From positions 1 through 23,803 of the forward strand of contig JAEOSZ010000086.1 of assembly GCA_016840095.1 (NCBI GenBank): a stretch of 23,803 nt of DNA. Direction: 5' to 3'. Position 1 is the first letter of the stretch. Every line of letters begins with the position of its first letter. The position numbers and the translations under genes are program-made. Source of the stretch: Candidatus Heimdallarchaeota archaeon. Its GTDB lineage: Archaea; Asgardarchaeota; Heimdallarchaeia; Heimdallarchaeales; Heimdallarchaeaceae. This document shows, piece after piece, positions 1,857 to 23,803 of the stretch. The notes under the pieces were generated by a model, which saw nothing but the letters and a program-made list of their open reading frames with translations, had not been told where the DNA came from and did no database searches.

Positions 1857-2435
1857 TTAGAGTTCTCCACGTAAATAATGTTGAATAGCTTCTGTTTGAG
1901 TACTCTTAATAATTTCTCTAATCAGAGTCTGAAATGCTTCTTGAACCTGATCACCAAACTTTGCAGAGGTTTCAATATAAGGTATATTATATCCACTCCA
2001 GTTTGAGAGAGCTTTAGCGTATTTTTCACCATATTCTGCAGGAATAGTGTTGTAAATATGTCCACGAAGATCATTTTTATTTCCAATTAAAACTAGTGGA
2101 ACTTTTCTGTTTTGATTATTTTTCAATAATTCTTTAACCCAATCTGCTAGATGTTCATAGGAATCTGGACGAGTTAAATCAAAAACGAGAAGAGCTCCTC
2201 GAGTACCTTTGTAAAAACCTTCGCGAACAGCAGAAAATCGGGGTTGACCAGCAAGATCCCAAATAATTATAGTAACTTCATATTCATCAACGTGAATAAC
2301 TTTGGTTGCGAAGTCTGCACCTAAAGTCATTTGATAATCGCGATCGAATCCTTCACCTAGGAAATTCTTCCTTAAACTTGTTTTTCCGACCGCCCCTTCA
2401 CCGAGTAGAGTAATTTTGAATTTCTTTGTTTCCAG
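1857..2435 (-). CDS. Rab/Ras-like small GTPase (~192 aa, probable CTG start)
   Basis: G1 GEGAVGKTS is encoded in-frame upstream of the ORF-track ATG at 2330. G2 YQMTLGADF, G3 WDLAGQ, G4 NKND and G5 ETSAK follow. The reading frame is bounded by TAA at 2438-2436, and the first codon after it is CTG at 2435. Confidence 0.9.
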   Translation of the reverse strand: METKKFKITLLGEGAVGKTSLRKNFLGEGFDRDYQMTLGADFATKVIHVDEYEVTIIIWDLAGQPRFSAVREGFYKGTRGALLVFDLTRPDSYEHLADWVKELLKNNQNRKVPLVLIGNKNDLRGHIYNTIPAEYGEKYAKALSNWSGYNIPYIETSAKFGDQVQEAFQTLIREIIKSTQTEAIQHYLRGEL

Positions 2436-15920: not shown

Positions 15921-17045
15921 TCATGGTTTATCTAGAACATCATCTATCTTAACTTCTTGAAAATCATTTCGAACAGACCTAATAACAGCTAAACCAATTT
16001 GAAGTATTCTTCGAGCATCTTCAGGATTTATTTCTATCTCTCTATTCTCATTAATACCATTAATAAATTCCTTTGAGCAATTTATAAATGAAGAATTCCA
16101 GTTTGTCTCCATGCTAGTATCAGAATGCCACTCTCCTTGTTCATCAACCCAATGTACTCCTGCTTGTCCTGGAGCAGCATCACCACAATTTTCAAAGAAA
16201 CTACCTGTACAACCGGGAACGAAAATAATTCCTTTTTCTCCAACTATTTCTATATATTCATCACAAGCATAATAGTCAGATTTCATCGGAAGAAACTTAT
16301 GAGTTGAAACATTCCATGTTCCATAATGAGATTTGTTTTTACATGAATACACAACAACAGATGGGGTATCATGTTTCACTACACCTTGAATCTTAAAGTC
16401 TCCTTGCCAGGCTAGAACTGAGTCTATCTCTTCTCCTAGAAATTGTGAAATGATACTATGTTTATGATATCCATCATCAAACAATGTTGGAGAATTATAA
16501 TTCCCTTCCTCTGTAAATCTCCATTTCCATGTTGATAAAGAAACCTTCCACTCAGACAATGCACTCAAACCACCCCACATTCTATAATCAACTCTTTCAG
16601 TTTTTCCAATCACACCTTTGTTGATTAAATCCATAGCAAATTGATAAGGAGGATAAAATCTGAAGTTCTCATAAATCCTGAATTTGACTCTGTTACTTTC
16701 AGTAGCTTCAATCATTCGATCCATATCAGATAAGGTTAAGCAAGGAACTTTTTGAAGTGATATATGTTTTCCAGCTTCAGCAGCTTTAATTGTTTGCTCA
16801 GTATGAAGCTGATGTGGTGTTAAAATCTCTACTGCTTCCATTTCCTCATTAGTAAGAAATTCATCATAATCTGTATAGGTATTTTCAACTTGAAATTCTT
16901 TAGCAACTTGTTGAACCCTCTTCTTATTCTTATCACAAATTGCTACTAATTCTGCTTGTATGTTTTTCTCTTTTTTATAAGCTTCAAGATGTAAGGTACT
17001 AATTCTTCCAAGACCCACTATACCCACTTTGACTGTGTCAGACAT
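15921..17045 (-). CDS. Gfo/Idh/MocA-family NAD(P)-dependent oxidoreductase (374 aa)
   Basis: Rossmann VKVGIVGLGRIS, TPHQLH, AGKHISLQKVP, ENFRFYP and DDGYH. True start is MSDTVK at 17045. Confidence 0.9.
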   Translation of the reverse strand: MSDTVKVGIVGLGRISTLHLEAYKKEKNIQAELVAICDKNKKRVQQVAKEFQVENTYTDYDEFLTNEEMEAVEILTPHQLHTEQTIKAAEAGKHISLQKVPCLTLSDMDRMIEATESNRVKFRIYENFRFYPPYQFAMDLINKGVIGKTERVDYRMWGGLSALSEWKVSLSTWKWRFTEEGNYNSPTLFDDGYHKHSIISQFLGEEIDSVLAWQGDFKIQGVVKHDTPSVVVYSCKNKSHYGTWNVSTHKFLPMKSDYYACDEYIEIVGEKGIIFVPGCTGSFFENCGDAAPGQAGVHWVDEQGEWHSDTSMETNWNSSFINCSKEFINGINENREIEINPEDARRILQIGLAVIRSVRNDFQEVKIDDVLDKP

Positions 17046-17089
17046 CTTGCTCTTCTTAAAATCAACAAATGAAATATTAAAAGATGTTG

Positions 17090-17114
17090 GAAAAAAAAGA
17101 GATAAAGGAGATAG
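17090..17114 (-). terminator. T-rich terminator of the 17117-18238 gene
   Basis: Minus strand reads CTATCTCCTTTATCTCTTTTTTTTC just after the stop codon. Confidence 0.45.
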
Positions 17115-17116
17115 AA

Positions 17117-18238
17117 CTAGGTTATACCAAATAAATTCTGGAAGAAAGGTACGACATCTTGCCAGAAGAAACTCAATAAACCAGAAATCGTTCCAAATGC
17201 AGAATAAACAAAGAGCATAATTGTCTGCCATTTTGAGATGTTTATGCCGAAAATCGCTTCCATTTTTCGTTTGTAAATCTTAATCGGTATATCAATTGTT
17301 TGAAGGATTCTATAATTCTGTTCAAACTCTATTCTCAGATTACTGTCTAAATCTTTTGACCATTTGGTTGGAGTTATAAAGAATTCAACTACGATTTCAT
17401 CAAGCTCAGGATGGAAATATACTATTCTTTGCTGTGGAGCTAAAGCTGCCATATGTCCAATTGCAATAGGTCGAACAATTAGTGTTCCTTGCTCTAAACC
17501 ATGAATTCTAGTTGTTGCTTCAATTACTTTTTCACCCAATTTAGTCACATTCATAGAGAAATATTGTGCAGATTCTTTGTCAACTGTTAATTCCTTAATA
17601 GATACTTTATCATCATATTTATCATCTCTAATCAAAGTAATTTTGAGACGAAAGACTTCATCTAAACACATATTTTTGGGAATCATAATTGATAAGTCTC
17701 TAGAATACCCTATAAATTCCTCAGCTTCTGCTGCTTCTCCAAGAGTTTCTTTACCAAAATCCTCATCTGCTCTAGGTGGAGCTGCCATTTCTAGTTCTTC
17801 TTCAAATTCCTTAGGTTCTAGTATCATCTCTGTTTCTTCATCTACCATTTTAGCTTTCTCTTCGTATTTTGGTGCATGTTCGCTACCAGCTGCAAATGCA
17901 TCAGTAACTCGTTCATAGTGTTTATCTTCTTTAATTTCTTCAATATCACTCATCATTCCGGAACTTGCACGATTTGGAGAGGGTTTACTTGTTTTCTCTT
18001 TCTTAGACTTACCTTTATGTTTACTACTTGCTACAATATAATCTTCTGAATCAGAAATAGTAGCAACAGCTTTTCTTCTAAAAGGACCTCTAGGAATGAA
18101 CGTTTCTCTATCTTTTAAACTAAATAGTCTCTCACCAAAGTCAATCTTCCTTGCAGATATTCCAATTAATAAAGCCAAGAATACTGTAAGTATGAAGATA
18201 GCTCCTAATGTATAAAATAGTGGTGCCAATGACGCCAT
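17117..18238 (-). CDS. Hypothetical membrane protein (N-terminal TM, charged low-complexity linker, beta-rich domain, C-terminal TM)
   Basis: 373-aa ORF with GAGGT and a TATA-like TTTAATT upstream. Hydrophobic termini and an acidic middle region. No family recognised. Confidence 0.75.
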   Translation of the reverse strand: MASLAPLFYTLGAIFILTVFLALLIGISARKIDFGERLFSLKDRETFIPRGPFRRKAVATISDSEDYIVASSKHKGKSKKEKTSKPSPNRASSGMMSDIEEIKEDKHYERVTDAFAAGSEHAPKYEEKAKMVDEETEMILEPKEFEEELEMAAPPRADEDFGKETLGEAAEAEEFIGYSRDLSIMIPKNMCLDEVFRLKITLIRDDKYDDKVSIKELTVDKESAQYFSMNVTKLGEKVIEATTRIHGLEQGTLIVRPIAIGHMAALAPQQRIVYFHPELDEIVVEFFITPTKWSKDLDSNLRIEFEQNYRILQTIDIPIKIYKRKMEAIFGINISKWQTIMLFVYSAFGTISGLLSFFWQDVVPFFQNLFGIT

Positions 18239-18376: not shown

Positions 18377-18706
18377 ATGAAAATGGTGAATGAGAAGGAA
18401 ACGATTTTCATTAATCAATTCGGGGTTCGTTTCAGAAGATGTGATGTTTCAGATTGTATCTACTGTGTAGATAAGTATGAAGTTTCCACGGGTGGATTAA
18501 TGTCTAATAAGAAAGGGACACCTTTCTTCAAAGGAAATGTTTGTAATTGCTCTCCAGATGATCCTATTAGTCTCAGAGAAGCTGCTAAAGTAAGGTGTTA
18601 TCCTATAGAAGAAAGGAAAACTAAATCTGATCATAGTAATCTAGAATTTATTCGTAATCTAAAAAATCAGTACGAAGTAACTCAATGTAAGATTGAAAAA
18701 TCTTAA
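18377..18706 (+). CDS. Small cysteine-rich hypothetical protein (possibly metal-binding)
   Basis: CDVSDCIYC...CNC...C, with a TATA-like TATATAAA about 30-40 nt upstream. Confidence 0.65.
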   Translation: MKMVNEKETIFINQFGVRFRRCDVSDCIYCVDKYEVSTGGLMSNKKGTPFFKGNVCNCSPDDPISLREAAKVRCYPIEERKTKSDHSNLEFIRNLKNQYEVTQCKIEKS

Positions 18707-18734
18707 ATTACGGTCTTGTGAGCTATAATCATCC

Positions 18735-19481
18735 ATGAAAAGAATTGATTTTAAGAATCAAATTTTCCACAAACACATCTTCCTATTTCTCATATTCTCA
18801 TCTTTTCTATGGATTATTTTGATGGGTTTAGCAATACATCATTATCCTGGTGGAAGCTTTGGAGATCCAACAACTGAAGGATTCAGTTTTTTTTACAATG
18901 CAATAAGTGATCTAGGAAGGTTCATTGCAACAAATGGAGAACCTAATACAGCTTCCAGAGTTCTTTCAATTATAGCTATAAACATTGTGAGTATATGTTC
19001 AATCTTATATTTTTCTTTCATCTGGATTTATTTCCAAGATAGAAAAGCAACAAAGTGGTTAAGTCTTATTGGAAGTGTAAATGGTGTTGCTTGCTCTATT
19101 TGCTATATTTTGTTATCATATGCTGCAGCAGATGCAGTATATCCTTATCATAAAAATCTTCTAACTATTTTCCCAGCATTTTTCTTCATTTCAGTTGTTT
19201 TCTATATGATAGTTTTTTACATGAACAAAGATTTTCCAAGGATAAATGCTGATTCCTATGCAGTTTTAATAGCTGCAGCAGTTGCATTTATAATAACCTT
19301 AATTGTAGGATTTGTTCAAGGTGGAGATTTAGATAGAATAGGTCGTAGAGCAGGTAATACACTATTTAATTTTGTACAGATATTTGTTTATAGTCTTCAA
19401 GGAATTGGAGCATATATTTATATTCAACGTCAAGGCAAAAAAGAACCAGTGTTGGAAGATGCAAAAGAACAAGTTGCTTAA
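18735..19481 (+). CDS. DUF998-like multi-pass membrane protein, paralog 1
   Basis: YPGG...FFYNAISDLGR...NGEPN motif and about 6 TM helices. Confidence 0.75.
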   Translation: MKRIDFKNQIFHKHIFLFLIFSSFLWIILMGLAIHHYPGGSFGDPTTEGFSFFYNAISDLGRFIATNGEPNTASRVLSIIAINIVSICSILYFSFIWIYFQDRKATKWLSLIGSVNGVACSICYILLSYAAADAVYPYHKNLLTIFPAFFFISVVFYMIVFYMNKDFPRINADSYAVLIAAAVAFIITLIVGFVQGGDLDRIGRRAGNTLFNFVQIFVYSLQGIGAYIYIQRQGKKEPVLEDAKEQVA

Positions 19482-20169
19482 ACTAATTTTCATTGGTGTA
19501 GCTGTTGTTTCAATTGTGTCAAATCTACTAATGGGTTTAGCAATCTACTTCTATCCTGGAGGTAATTTTATTGACAATATGGAAGAAGGATTTGGTACTA
19601 TTTATGGTGCTCTGAGTGACTTAGGTAGAGTTACAGCTTACAATGGAGAATCAAACCTTGTTTCAAGAGTTTTGTATACTTCTGCTATCAGTATATTATC
19701 TATTGCTGTAATGATTTTCTATAGCATAATCTGGAAATTTTTCCAAGAAAGGAAATCAACCAAGTGGCTGAGTATTATAGGTTCTTTGTTCGGTGTTACA
19801 CAGAGTATTTTATACATGGTTTTTGCATTTTCTCCAGCAGATATAGCTTTTTCCAGACACATAATGTTAATTTATGTTTCTCCAGGTTTCTTAATAGGGT
19901 CAATTTTAATTTATACAATTGTATTCTTTATAGCTAAAGATTTCCCACGAATTAATGCATATTCATTTTTTGCTTTGATAATAATTGCTGTAATGTTTGC
20001 TACAGCTGTAACTATAGGTTCAATCAGAAAAGATGCAGACATACTTATGTTTCATGCAAGTAGAAGACTTGGACATACATTATTCAATTTCATAGTAACT
20101 TTCAACTATGGAATACAAGCAATTGGTGCACACTTACATGTCAAAAAAACATTTAGAGATAAGAAATAG
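19459..20169 (+). CDS. DUF998-like multi-pass membrane protein, paralog 2
   Basis: YPGG...LSDLGR...NGESN, collinear with paralog 1. Start MQKNK at 19459 inferred from that alignment, giving a 23-nt overlap. Confidence 0.75.
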   Translation: MQKNKLLKLIFIGVAVVSIVSNLLMGLAIYFYPGGNFIDNMEEGFGTIYGALSDLGRVTAYNGESNLVSRVLYTSAISILSIAVMIFYSIIWKFFQERKSTKWLSIIGSLFGVTQSILYMVFAFSPADIAFSRHIMLIYVSPGFLIGSILIYTIVFFIAKDFPRINAYSFFALIIIAVMFATAVTIGSIRKDADILMFHASRRLGHTLFNFIVTFNYGIQAIGAHLHVKKTFRDKK

Positions 20170-20207
20170 GGAAAAAACTCTTAAAATCAAAGTAAATCTA
20201 AAATAAT

Positions 20208-20876
20208 ATGACCTTAGCACTAGTTGAAATGCATAGCAACGAGAAAGACATTAACACGATAATAGCTTTCATCAAAGAACACATTCCCTATTACGGTTAT
20301 AAAATAAGAAGTTCCAAAGATGAATTTCTAGAGCATTATTCCCTGCGAATATCTAAGGAGATGTATCGCTGGGTCATCAATTTTGATATAAGGCTGGATA
20401 GAACAGGAAATCTAGTAAAAGCAGAAATTTCTAGGCTAGAACCTTTTATATTAGATAAGAAAATCATAGAACAATTCCAAAGAAATCAAAATCGAAATCA
20501 AGATAGACCTTCAATGTCTTTATGGAGCATCTTATGGAGAAGCTGGTGGATCTACTTAATTGTCAGTTTTGTTGGGTCAATGATATTAAGTTTCTTTCCA
20601 TGGGTAAACAGATCAATACAAAATTTTGGTTATGCTTTAATGGGTATACTAGGGTTTGTTATCCTTGTATTTGTTGCAGGCATATTTTATAATCGTCACC
20701 AAAGAAATAATGAATTGGAAAAGGTCCAATCACTAAAGAAGGATTTAGAACAAATAATTGAAAGCATTGATGACACAAAACCAAAAGAAAATATCATTTG
20801 CTGGTCATGTTTTGTAGAAGTACTACCTGAGAAAAGAAAGTGTCCAAACTGTGGAGTTGACCTAGTAAAAGTCTAG
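20208..20876 (+). CDS. Two-TM membrane protein with C-terminal zinc ribbon
   Basis: Soluble N-domain, two hydrophobic helices, coiled-coil-like stretch and CWSC-x9-CPNC. Confidence 0.75.
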   Translation: MTLALVEMHSNEKDINTIIAFIKEHIPYYGYKIRSSKDEFLEHYSLRISKEMYRWVINFDIRLDRTGNLVKAEISRLEPFILDKKIIEQFQRNQNRNQDRPSMSLWSILWRSWWIYLIVSFVGSMILSFFPWVNRSIQNFGYALMGILGFVILVFVAGIFYNRHQRNNELEKVQSLKKDLEQIIESIDDTKPKENIICWSCFVEVLPEKRKCPNCGVDLVKV

Positions 20877-20917: not shown

Positions 20918-21901
20918 TTAGTACTTGTATCCACAGTTTCCACAGAACTTTGCGTCAGGTGAGTTTTTAGCGCCACATTCAGTACAGAATTTAATTTTGC
21001 CACTTTTCTCATCGTCTGTAGGATCTCCACAATGAGCACAGAATTTTGCAGCAGGTGAAACTTTGTTCTTACATTGATTACATTCAATGAAAGCAGCTTC
21101 AACTTCACCTTTCTTCTCAAGTTTATCAGCTTGTTTTATTTCGCCTTTTGAGAAGAGATTGTTTATCATTACTGCACCACCAAGACCACCACCGCCTTCA
21201 GGCATTTTCTCAACTACTTTTGCCATACCAGCATATTGTTGGACTTGACCAGCGGATACTCCAGATCTCATCCAGAACAATCGATCTCTGTATTCTGGAG
21301 TTGTATCGATTCCTCCGAATTTAAGAGTCTTGAGTTTTATTCCGAATTCTTTGAGATCACCTGCAACTTCACCTTCTATGAAGTCTGATGTTTTACCCAA
21401 GTTCGACATCACATCTACAATACTTTTTTCTGAAAGTTTGCTTATAACTGATTCAACTATAAAAGTTCTGAAGAATTCATTAAAAGCTGCTGTAGTGTAA
21501 ATGTTTCTGTTCCCTGCAATTTCGAAAACAAACTTTTGGATATCATCAATCTTATAGAAATAATCTCCAAAGAATTGCAATGGTGCTAATTCTTGTGTTT
21601 GTGATCGCCCTCCGAATTTTCCTTGAAAGTCTGCGAGATTGACAAAAATCACTTGACAATTGAATGGGCTTTTGTCAAATCCTACTATTCTTGACAAGAA
21701 AGTTGTCAAAAGTGGAATATTCTTAGTTTTCATGAAATGTCTTCCACCCTTGAGTACATCATAAACGACTGAATCTTTTATGAATACTGCAACTTGGTTT
21801 GGAAGGACATTAACCTGATCTCCCCAATTGATAGTATCACGAGGATGTCTGTACATTATTTCGTCGCCTCTTCCTAGGGGCCACTCCAATACTTCTACCA
21901 T
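20918..21901 (-). CDS. SPFH/Band-7 domain protein (YdjI / 'virion core protein' subtype) with C-terminal double zinc ribbon
   Basis: INWGDQVNVLPNQVAVFIKD...GGRHFMKTKNIPLL...SPFNCQVIFVN...FGDYFYKIDD...FGIKL, a Gly-rich linker, then CNQC/CAHC/CTEC/CGNC. GAGGT SD upstream. Confidence 0.88.
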   Translation of the reverse strand: MVEVLEWPLGRGDEIMYRHPRDTINWGDQVNVLPNQVAVFIKDSVVYDVLKGGRHFMKTKNIPLLTTFLSRIVGFDKSPFNCQVIFVNLADFQGKFGGRSQTQELAPLQFFGDYFYKIDDIQKFVFEIAGNRNIYTTAAFNEFFRTFIVESVISKLSEKSIVDVMSNLGKTSDFIEGEVAGDLKEFGIKLKTLKFGGIDTTPEYRDRLFWMRSGVSAGQVQQYAGMAKVVEKMPEGGGGLGGAVMINNLFSKGEIKQADKLEKKGEVEAAFIECNQCKNKVSPAAKFCAHCGDPTDDEKSGKIKFCTECGAKNSPDAKFCGNCGYKY

Positions 21902-22055
21902 AATATTACCTCTTTGATAATTTAAATATAACCTCTAAACGGTTCTATTTCAAAATATTGTAAACCATGCTTTTAAAGGTATTTAATGAGGGAATTTGGA
22001 CACAATGTTCTTCCCGATATTGAAAAGCTAATGAAATGAATGAATTTAGTCTCTT

Positions 22056-23639
22056 TTACTCTTTCAGATTTGTGTCCTTTCCACAAAATGTGCAAAACTT
22101 TGATACAGATGAAATCTTCTTTTTGCAGTTGTTACATGTAGAGTATTCTGAGTCTTTTTCTGGTTTTTCTTGTTCCTCTATATCTTCTTTACTAACCTCA
22201 TCAGGCTGCTCGATTTCTTCCAATTTATCAAGATTCACTCCTTCAGATACTGTTAACTCATCCTTTGGTTTAGTTATCTCTGTTTCCACATTTTCTATTA
22301 AAGTTGGTTTAAACTCTTCAATTTCGATTTTCTTTATTTCTTCTTTGCAAACTGGGCATTTAGGATTAAACCTTATCCAAGTTTCTAGATGATTTACATG
22401 ATAGATATTATCACATGAATTACATCTTGAAATAGCTACTTCTCTCTCAACTATATTGTTACAGATTAAACATCTAGGAATATCTTTCTTACAATGCCAA
22501 CATTCTCGGTTAGTAATTGGGTTTGGTCTAAGGCAATTTGGGCATCTTGTCAATCCTTTTCTACGCAATAGATTCTTCGTTTTTTGACCAGTTTTGTACA
22601 GAAATATCCTTGCTTTACTTACATCTTCTCCAAAATGTTCTCTCCAATCTAATATTGGTTTAACAATTGCTACACCACAGACCAAAGCTGACATTGCAAT
22701 TCTTATTTCCATTTCTAACATATTCAAGAGAAAGAACAAAGCAATTCCAAAAGCAAACAATATTAGATAATTTCTAACAAATATGAATTTAAAAGCATCA
22801 CCTATCCAAGTAAAAATTGCTTTCAACTTAGCTTTGACCCATCTAACCATTCGCTTGAATCGTTCAGGATCATAGAGCATCTTAGCTAATTTGACTATCA
22901 GACTAGGTAGATATTTAATACCTCTCCAAAGAGATTGGAAGAAAGTAGCAATTATTTTACCTATATCCTTCATTATCTCTGCTAGCTCTTCTCTTAGGTG
23001 TATTATGATATTAATCAGTATCAACCCCCCACCTATCAAATAGAAGTATACAGCATCAATCCAAATAAAAACATCTAGAGCTGTAAGAACTATAACAGCT
23101 ATCCCTGCAAGAGTTAACAGATTCCAAGGAGATAGAATTAATTTCCACTTAATCCTCTTTAACATCCTTTTCAATGATTCACCGATTCTTCGGAATAATT
23201 CCAGTATCTTTTCATTCAGATCATATGCTTCAATGAAAAATCCAAAAATAATCAGTAGAACTCCAAAAGCCATTATTATGAAGAAAACATAATCCTTAAC
23301 TGTAAAATCTTCATTTCCAAAAGTGAATATGTAAATCAATGTAGGTAGAGCTAACATGAAGAATCCAAGATAAGCTGTTATTGCTCCTAGAACGAAATAT
23401 TCTATTCCTTTTCTCTTAATTCGTCGAAGAATCAAAGCAAAGAAGAGAATTAAGAAACCAGAAACCAGTACTCCTATGAATAGCATGAACAGCCATTCTT
23501 TTGTCTCATACATTCCAGTAATTCCTGTGACCATAGTGCCAAGTAGACCAATTATACCGACAATGAGTCCTATCCACATTGTAGTAAGTGCTGGAGTTTT
23601 TTGTTCTATGAGTTCCTTATCAAGATGTTTCTCGTTCAT
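22056..23639 (-). CDS. Multi-pass membrane protein with zinc ribbon + RING finger + zinc ribbon (putative membrane E3 ubiquitin ligase)
   Basis: About 8 hydrophobic helices, CPNC...CWHC, RING CLIC-x12-CNSC-x4-H-x2-H-LETW-x6-CPVC, acidic linker, CNNC...FCTFCG. ATG at 23639 has GGAGGTG upstream and overlaps the upstream stop (ATGA). Confidence 0.82.
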   Translation of the reverse strand: MNEKHLDKELIEQKTPALTTMWIGLIVGIIGLLGTMVTGITGMYETKEWLFMLFIGVLVSGFLILFFALILRRIKRKGIEYFVLGAITAYLGFFMLALPTLIYIFTFGNEDFTVKDYVFFIIMAFGVLLIIFGFFIEAYDLNEKILELFRRIGESLKRMLKRIKWKLILSPWNLLTLAGIAVIVLTALDVFIWIDAVYFYLIGGGLILINIIIHLREELAEIMKDIGKIIATFFQSLWRGIKYLPSLIVKLAKMLYDPERFKRMVRWVKAKLKAIFTWIGDAFKFIFVRNYLILFAFGIALFFLLNMLEMEIRIAMSALVCGVAIVKPILDWREHFGEDVSKARIFLYKTGQKTKNLLRRKGLTRCPNCLRPNPITNRECWHCKKDIPRCLICNNIVEREVAISRCNSCDNIYHVNHLETWIRFNPKCPVCKEEIKKIEIEEFKPTLIENVETEITKPKDELTVSEGVNLDKLEEIEQPDEVSKEDIEEQEKPEKDSEYSTCNNCKKKISSVSKFCTFCGKDTNLKE

Positions 23640-23803
23640 TTCTTCCACACCTCCTCTATCTGGTCTGCAAGTTTTTTAGACCTACCAGTTCTTAGTTTCT
23701 TAAGCTCTCCACGCCATCGTAGAATTATTATCGCCACAGAAGCCATAACTATCAATCCTCCTCCTATAAACATCATAATTGGTACGGAAAATCCATCTGG
23801 AAA
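23636..23803 (-). CDS. 3' end of an upstream membrane protein (partial; not in the ORF track)
   Basis: Open frame from the window end: FPDGFSVPIMMFIGGGLIVMASVAIIILRWRGELKKLRTGRSKKLADQIEEVWKK*, with TGA at 23638-23636 overlapping the next ATG. Confidence 0.75.
   Translation of the reverse strand, partial: FPDGFSVPIMMFIGGGLIVMASVAIIILRWRGELKKLRTGRSKKLADQIEEVWKK

Follow-up and report, generated by a model that had tools for sequence, protein, structure and literature searches.

Two probably separate units at a Heimdallarchaeota locus: a conserved membrane protein pair with a RING-like finger and a neighboring SPFH gene

We analyzed a 23,803-nucleotide stretch of Heimdallarchaeota DNA (hereafter the window), which makes up all of contig C77 in a metagenome-assembled genome (MAG) of 3.44 Mb and 89% completeness, such that nothing lies beyond position 23803. 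The relatives that were retrieved with the proteins of this genome were Candidatus Heimdallarchaeota or Heimdallarchaeaceae. One end of the window contains three minus-strand open reading frames (ORFs), which had been noticed in an earlier, sequence-only reading: the 3'-end of a membrane protein gene, a gene for a RING protein with about eight transmembrane (TM) helices that is coupled to the first gene by an ATGA overlap (the TM-RING protein), and a gene for an SPFH protein with a double zinc ribbon. The ORFs were located at exactly the positions that had been given, and the description of their products was confirmed by the ORFs, by Pfam profiles, and by an AlphaFold2 (AF2) model (Table 1). 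The sequence-only reading had united the three genes in a module that resembled endoplasmic reticulum (ER)-associated degradation (ERAD). Our results point to two separate units, a pair of membrane proteins and the SPFH gene, which are probably no more than neighbors, and this only in the present genus.

Table 1. Features of the locus and of related loci (window positions; aa, amino acids)
Feature	Position	Strand	Description
Membrane partner gene, 3'-end	23636..23803	-	55 codons; gene cut by the contig end
TM-RING protein	22056..23639	-	527 aa from the ATG overlapping the upstream stop codon; alternative GTG start at 23648
Membrane domain of the TM-RING protein	22650..23594	-	8 hydrophobic helices arranged as 4 hairpins (AF2 model)
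Zinc ribbon 1	22491..22544	-	CxxC-x10-CxxC, four invariant Cys; directly before the RING
RING-like cross-brace finger	22347..22472	-	C-x2-C-x12-C-x2-C-x4-H-x2-H-x10-C-x2-C
Terminal zinc ribbon of the TM-RING protein	22083..22136	-	After a disordered acidic linker; found only in the four closest orthologs
154-bp spacer with the SPFH upstream block	21902..22055	-	TTTAAAA 21971-21977; TAGAACC 21941-21947; AGAGG 21909-21913
Soluble SPFH protein	20918..21901	-	327 aa; Band_7_1 domain 21278-21853; double zinc ribbon 20930-21082
p373	17117..18238	-	373-aa two-TM protein (N- and C-terminal TM helices, acidic disordered region)
RING-less pairs of family f5			Loci L109-L112 (genomes G222, G265, G231, G098)

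In the membrane domain of the TM-RING protein, the outer loops comprise 3-9 residues, and long basic amphipathic helices are situated between the hairpins. The loops on the side of the N-terminus and the RING contain 37 Lys and Arg residues, versus one on the opposite side, and therefore the finger and both termini are predicted to be cytoplasmic. Thirty family members were aligned, among them 19-24%-identical proteins from other families. The eight ligands of the finger and, likewise, the four Cys of the preceding ribbon proved to be invariant or conserved to at least 90%. The same is true for I392, W421, and P429 at the positions that contact the ubiquitin-conjugating enzyme (E2), that is, for the Ile between the ligands C1 and C2, the Trp after ligand 6, and the Pro after C7. 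The residue following the last Cys (C8) is Lys, His, or Arg in 29 of 29 intact fingers, and Lys in the window protein. The roles of these Ile, Trp, and Pro positions and of the basic residue after C8 in E2 contacts are well established from RING-E2 structures. The ligand pattern can be written as C4-H-H-C2, close to the C4HC3 arrangement that has been reported to be typical of prokaryotic RINGs (PMC11354881).

The assignment as a RING was based on four lines of evidence, i.e., on Pfam matches of the orthologs, on RING-H2 matches in the PDB, on the invariant ligands, and on the predicted fold. Many orthologs carry a precomputed match to PF13639, and the best sequence matches in the PDB were RING-H2 ubiquitin ligases (E3s), namely Arkadia (E 1.2e-5), RNF165, and synoviolin. 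The AF2 model of the TM-RING protein had a mean predicted local distance difference test score (pLDDT) of 76, with values of 84-90 for the finger. When the predicted finger was compared using Foldseek, the template modeling score by target with the RNF165 RING was 0.74-0.84 (root-mean-square deviation 2.0 Å), and that with the gp78 RING was 0.59. For the membrane domain, no match was obtained when its profile was searched against the PDB sequences or when the full model was submitted to Foldseek, and a feature search of the ESM Atlas with this domain gave no usable match. A wide search with VIA-align retrieved generic helical matches only, with Z-scores up to 9.6; HRD1 (9uav_B) scored 8.8 (root-mean-square deviation 5.9) and was tied with unrelated helical proteins.

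A complete copy of the upstream gene is present in the close relative G012; it encodes 858 aa and about 16 TM helices, and the C-terminus of its product shares 82% identity with the fragment in the window. Full-length orthologs have 700-938 aa and about 14-21 TM helices, and they are built from repeats of about 95 aa, each consisting of an amphipathic helix and a TM hairpin. No family was found for this protein or for its distant relatives in Pfam and NCBIfam. An AF2 model of the 858-aa protein, calculated with 20 sequences, revealed an all-helical repeat architecture; with a mean pLDDT of 61 and a predicted template modeling score of 0.28, its quality was too poor for use in a fold search.

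The start codon of the RING gene overlaps the upstream stop codon TGA, and the sequence GGAGGTG is situated just upstream. In every locus of the genus that contains the RING gene, the upstream gene directly precedes it, and the stop and start codons overlap or abut. The same arrangement was found in other families of the order, at seven of seven loci, where a RING homolog of 403-532 aa directly follows a gene for a protein of 501-731 aa with 11-20 TM helices. The upstream proteins of the genus and of the distant relatives could be aligned weakly (hhalign probability 92% over 97 columns). When the profiles of the upstream protein and the RING protein were compared with each other, only 29 columns at and around the last TM helix could be aligned (probability 81%), too few for calling the two proteins paralogs. 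When 301 genomes from the whole phylum were searched with the membrane domain alone, full-length relatives of the TM-RING protein were found only in this order, in 21 of 28 genomes of family f1, the one genome of f2, 8 of 11 genomes of f3, and none of the three genomes of f4. Together, these findings extended the coupling of the polytopic RING protein to a membrane protein, which had been proposed for the window alone, to the whole order: the conserved unit is the pair of a giant, repeat-built polytopic protein and a TM-RING protein. At a single locus (L040, genome G025), a Cdc48 homolog is encoded about 2.7 kb from the pair.

Next, we considered the function of the pair. The objection that ubiquitin machinery might be missing fails, because ubiquitin, the ubiquitin-activating enzyme (E1), E2, and Cdc48 are all encoded in the genome. 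It contains four UQ_con, two ubiquitin, and three ThiF matches, which form two compact ubiquitin-E1-E2 clusters on contigs C118 and C159, as well as three CDC48_N genes, although Cdc48 is general in archaea. The genome also has 16 RING loci, and thus the window protein is one RING protein among many. Experiments by others have demonstrated E3 activity for archaeal RING proteins, including Asgard ones (PMC5654768; bioRxiv 10.1101/2023.07.25.550441). Because of the RING fold, the ligands, the E2-contact residues, the basic residue after C8, and the presence of ubiquitin, E1, E2, and Cdc48 in the genome, a membrane-embedded RING E3 is plausible. Most likely, it would operate in three steps: the two membrane proteins would form one complex, the RING would recruit a charged E2 of the eukaryote-like ubiquitin system of the organism at the cytoplasmic face, and ubiquitin would be passed to membrane or membrane-proximal substrates that are chosen by the membrane domains. 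Judged from sequence and model, the chances that the TM-RING protein has E3 activity seem to be about even. That the order possesses a conserved, two-subunit, membrane-embedded RING ubiquitin ligase, with a membrane fold unrelated to those of Hrd1 and Doa10, is a proposal that we regard as possible but doubtful.

Several observations weigh against a ubiquitin ligase. No match to the ubiquitin, E1, and E2 proteins of the genome was found in 295 kb of TM-RING loci (24 loci). The ligand pattern is unusual, in that the canonical His4 is an Asn and is replaced by an invariant Cys located three residues before C3, and the window protein scored 21.7 bits with the Pfam profile zf-RING_2, below the gathering threshold of 27.3 (27.2 in a second scan). 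In addition, some relatives do not have an intact finger. The homolog in G025 (family f2, L040:1238-2836) has lost C1, C2, and both His, while the other four Cys and the Trp were kept. In family f5, the first approximately 130 positions of the TM-RING protein match proteins of 745-1412 aa with 6-7 TM helices, which again follow a polytopic protein (1111-1285 aa, 24-27 TM helices) with overlapping or abutting stop and start codons. These second proteins retain the post-membrane ribbon and have no RING; they contain a repeated motif of about 35 residues, G-[KR]-F-P-D-[FY]...Y-S-E-L, and a terminal ribbon. Because the f5 relatives keep the pair without the RING, the pair is older than its RING head. 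Given these relatives and the loss of ligands in G025, the main task of the pair may be something other than the transfer of ubiquitin.

The RING-less relatives suggest the main alternative: the finger may serve as a zinc module with a structural or protein-binding role, and the pair may form a membrane scaffold, shaping, or transport complex, the cytoplasmic head of which varies between lineages. The TM hairpins, the amphipathic helices, and the minimal outer loops would fit a scaffold, and the pair is found without ubiquitin genes around it. The tandem of ribbon and RING is also similar to zinc modules at the C-termini of IFT121/144 and GATOR2, which are non-catalytic, and the zinc modules of IFT121/IFT144 were the only likeness in an atlas fold search. 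However, the Ile, Trp, and Pro and the basic residue after C8 have been kept across 29 sequences, which a purely structural finger would not require, and the closest matches in both sequence and fold are active RING-H2 E3s. We therefore consider a purely structural or binding role unlikely.

The third gene was analyzed in the same manner. The SPFH protein matches the Pfam profiles Band_7_1 (E 1.3e-20, 74.4 bits versus a cut-off of 24) and DZR (E 1.1e-9, 38.7 versus 27.3 bits). It has no TM or other hydrophobic segment, and a Gly-rich low-complexity linker leads to the C-terminal double ribbon, in which eight Cys are invariant in 26 sequences. Band_7_1 and the lack of a hydrophobic segment identify it as an SPFH protein of the soluble YdjI type, not of the erlin type, as had been recognized before. 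The suspicion that the 154-bp gap upstream harbors a promoter of its own was also substantiated, in the form of a promoter-like block. A comparative alignment revealed that about 85 nt before the SPFH start codon are conserved in 17 of 17 loci of the genus, irrespective of the upstream gene. In all 17 of them, TTTAAA(A/T) precedes a (T/C)AGAACC block by exactly 30 nt, a spacing that would be expected for an archaeal TATA box and transcription start, and a Shine-Dalgarno-like (A/T)GAGG motif is situated at -12 or -13. A second TATA-like sequence, TTTAAAT (21920-21926, in the minus-strand stretch 21920-21947), lies between the TAGAACC block and the SPFH start and is not conserved in the relatives. 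A regulatory site could be present in the conserved leader, which is about 40-48 nt long.

To compare gene neighborhoods, the SPFH and TM-RING loci of the relatives were inspected. The direct order of RING and SPFH was found in seven genomes of the genus. In 5-6 others, a gene for an FTR1 permease, an MFS transporter, or, on the opposite strand, a GT2 glycosyltransferase lies between the two, and another gene precedes SPFH at loci L055 and L063. In the genus members G003, G006, G013, and G015, contig breaks affect the view of this adjacency. Outside the genus, a RING neighbor was found at none of about 20 SPFH loci. Three genomes from other genera of the same family (G120, G182, and G234) encode a full-length TM-RING protein and SPFH on different contigs, and in G043 SPFH and a partial match to the TM domain are likewise separated. 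Moreover, each unit occurs without the other. SPFH was found without a TM-RING gene in G007, G011, the two genomes that consist of a single contig (G065 and G109), and each of the three f4 genomes. Closed genomes of the Heimdallarchaeum type carry only the SPFH gene. The TM-RING pair was found without SPFH in eight f3 genomes and in the f2 genome, and in the two f3 genomes with SPFH the pair was not found. In genomes without a detected TM-RING gene, SPFH is still 53-85% identical. The two proteins also differ in their conservation within the genus, with identities of 81-91% for SPFH versus about 50% for the RING protein. In summary, RING-SPFH adjacency is not conserved among the relatives, and the view of SPFH as a third component was largely refuted by the interrupted, genus-restricted adjacency, the promoter-like block, and the independent phyletic patterns. 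As part of the two-unit arrangement, SPFH is thus probably an independent, separately promoted gene that does not belong to the pair. Of the proposed ubiquitin-dependent membrane protein system, the conserved coupled pair and the ubiquitin, E1, E2, and Cdc48 genes remain, while the membership of SPFH does not.

Two points weigh against the separation of SPFH from the pair. First, the MAGs are 63-94% complete, which weakens the absence calls; single absences are soft for this reason, but the pattern is still consistent. Second, the terminal ribbon of the TM-RING protein resembles a part of SPFH. In G012, the tail of the TM-RING protein is 55% identical to the linker and first ribbon of SPFH over 56 residues (E 6e-16), whereas the identity in the window is 41%, and the SPFH match of the window ribbon is marginal (35.4 bits versus 34.3 bits for other ribbons). 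The terminal ribbon was taken as a copy of SPFH on the strength of G012, where the match is clear; judged by sequence, it is a recent local duplication of the SPFH linker and first ribbon. It may or may not hint at a link between RING and SPFH in this subclade. A complex prediction for the TM-RING protein and SPFH returned "no answer", with a score of 0.00 in two runs, which counts neither way with respect to binding.

These data were also used to evaluate the reading that all three genes form one ubiquitin-dependent, ERAD-like quality control system, in which SPFH would scaffold the complex or deliver substrates, at least in the genus. The direct same-strand adjacency in seven genomes, the SPFH-derived ribbon gained by the four closest RING orthologs, and the presence of ubiquitin, E1, E2, and Cdc48 are in line with such a system. 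Nevertheless, it is improbable, because beyond the genus the adjacency is absent even from genomes with both genes (G120, G182, G234, and, with only a partial TM-domain match, G043) and is interrupted by GT2, FTR1, or MFS genes within it, because SPFH has its own conserved promoter-like block and an independent phyletic pattern that approaches mutual exclusion in family f3, and because it is a soluble Band_7_1 protein and not erlin-like. A search for Derlin (DER1) found none, but its control matched nothing anywhere and was thus uninformative. An arrangement like YdjGHI without ubiquitin, in which the RING membrane protein would be the anchor that recruits the soluble SPFH, is very improbable: the YdjI-type SPFH needs membrane partners that are encoded alongside (PMC8581546), and a ribbon module is common to both proteins in this subclade, but SPFH persists where no TM-RING was found, p373 is its steadier neighbor, no PspA over the cut-off was found in the genome, and most orthologs that still have SPFH as a neighbor lack the terminal ribbon.

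By analogy with B. subtilis YdjI, the SPFH protein probably works at the membrane via a membrane protein anchor. The best candidate from the genomic context is p373, not the RING protein, because a p373 homolog is the most persistent same-strand downstream neighbor of SPFH and is close to it in the three genera g1, g10, and g13. In most genomes of the genus it lies directly or nearly directly downstream, including the RING-less G007 and G011. No family was found for p373 in Pfam and NCBIfam. In the window, four plus-strand genes separate SPFH from p373. This block (18377-20876) encodes a 109-aa Cys-rich protein, a 222-aa protein with two TM helices that ends in a zinc ribbon, and two tandem paralogous proteins of about six TM helices with a weak Frag1/DRAM/Sfk1 match, the ORFs of which overlap at 19372-19481. 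The relatives have one copy of the six-TM gene; in their loci, no counterpart of the 222-aa gene was observed. At distant Heimdall loci (L074, L076-L081, L083, and L084), the SPFH ortholog has another neighborhood, likewise conserved: it is situated downstream of a divergent 330-aa ThiF-family (E1-like) gene and a helix-turn-helix protein gene, and an M24 peptidase gene follows.

The remainder of the window contains unrelated genes, among them those for an XPD-type helicase, a Ras-like GTPase, an MMPL protein, and ProRS. The ORF of the Ras-family GTPase (1857-2330, minus strand) matches its Pfam profile only from position 31, and therefore the P-loop region would lie upstream of the first ATG. 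The ORF listed for a GFO/IDH/MocA oxidoreductase (15921-17231, minus strand) overlaps the 373-aa gene by 115 nt; its true start is probably further downstream, because the orthologs align only from residue 63.

Heimdallarchaeia are the archaeal group that has been placed closest to the eukaryotes, and polytopic RING ligases are central to protein quality control at the eukaryotic ER and organelles. If the tentative proposal of a two-subunit ligase is true, the tagging of membrane proteins with ubiquitin by polytopic RING proteins would have arisen, possibly independently, before or outside the eukaryotic ER. A conserved membrane RING protein with an obligate giant partner would offer a concrete handle on the question of whether membrane protein ubiquitination predates endomembranes. 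At the same time, the analysis removes a tempting but unsupported analogy between SPFH and ERAD, and it points to p373 as a candidate partner of a YdjI-like SPFH.

Among known systems, the TM-RING protein is most readily compared with Hrd1/synoviolin and gp78/AMFR. Like these, it has an N-terminal domain of eight helices and, after it, a cytoplasmic RING in which ligands 5 and 6 are His, and its finger resembles the RINGs of synoviolin and gp78 in sequence and in predicted fold. Hrd1 ligases work with a second membrane subunit, and the TM-RING protein is likewise paired, as judged here from the genes. However, homology of the membrane domains was not detected with a PDB profile, Foldseek, or VIA-align, the ligands are C4-H-H-C2 with Asn at His4, and an extra ribbon precedes the RING. 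Furthermore, the partner is a giant repeat protein and not Hrd3 or Der1. The Hrd1-like layout is thus real at the level of sequence and model, whereas homology to Hrd1 was not detected.

A second comparison concerns the small RING protein of Caldiarchaeum and the Helarchaeial RING E3, for which activity was shown in vitro (PMC5654768; 10.1101/2023.07.25.550441). These are, like the TM-RING protein, archaeal RINGs from genomes with eukaryote-like ubiquitin, E1, and E2 proteins. However, they are small and soluble and are encoded inside operons for ubiquitin or for the endosomal sorting (ESCRT) complexes, whereas the polytopic TM-RING protein comes with an obligate membrane partner gene and is not encoded near ubiquitin genes. 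No polytopic archaeal RING protein was described in the literature searched, where the archaeal RING E3s were small, soluble proteins from ubiquitin or ESCRT operons; the TM-RING protein differs from these in being membrane-embedded, with a giant membrane partner.

The SPFH protein of the window is similar to B. subtilis YdjI, a soluble protein with a C-terminal zinc finger that needs the membrane proteins YdjG and YdjH for reaching the membrane and for recruiting PspA (PMC8581546). It shares with YdjI/SamI the Band_7_1 domain, the lack of TM helices, the low-complexity linker, and the C-terminal zinc finger (PMC8581546). It differs in that no PspA_IM30 match over the cut-off was found in the 89%-complete genome, its neighbors are not homologs of YdjG or YdjH, its ribbon is double, and its promoter-like element is of the archaeal type. 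The analogy with erlin1/2-RNF170 and HflK/C-FtsH, which had been drawn in the sequence-only reading, concerns an SPFH protein that is encoded or acts beside a membrane quality control enzyme. The erlin and HflK/C proteins are membrane-anchored and are physically caged with their enzymes, whereas the SPFH protein of the window is soluble, separately promoted, and phyletically independent.

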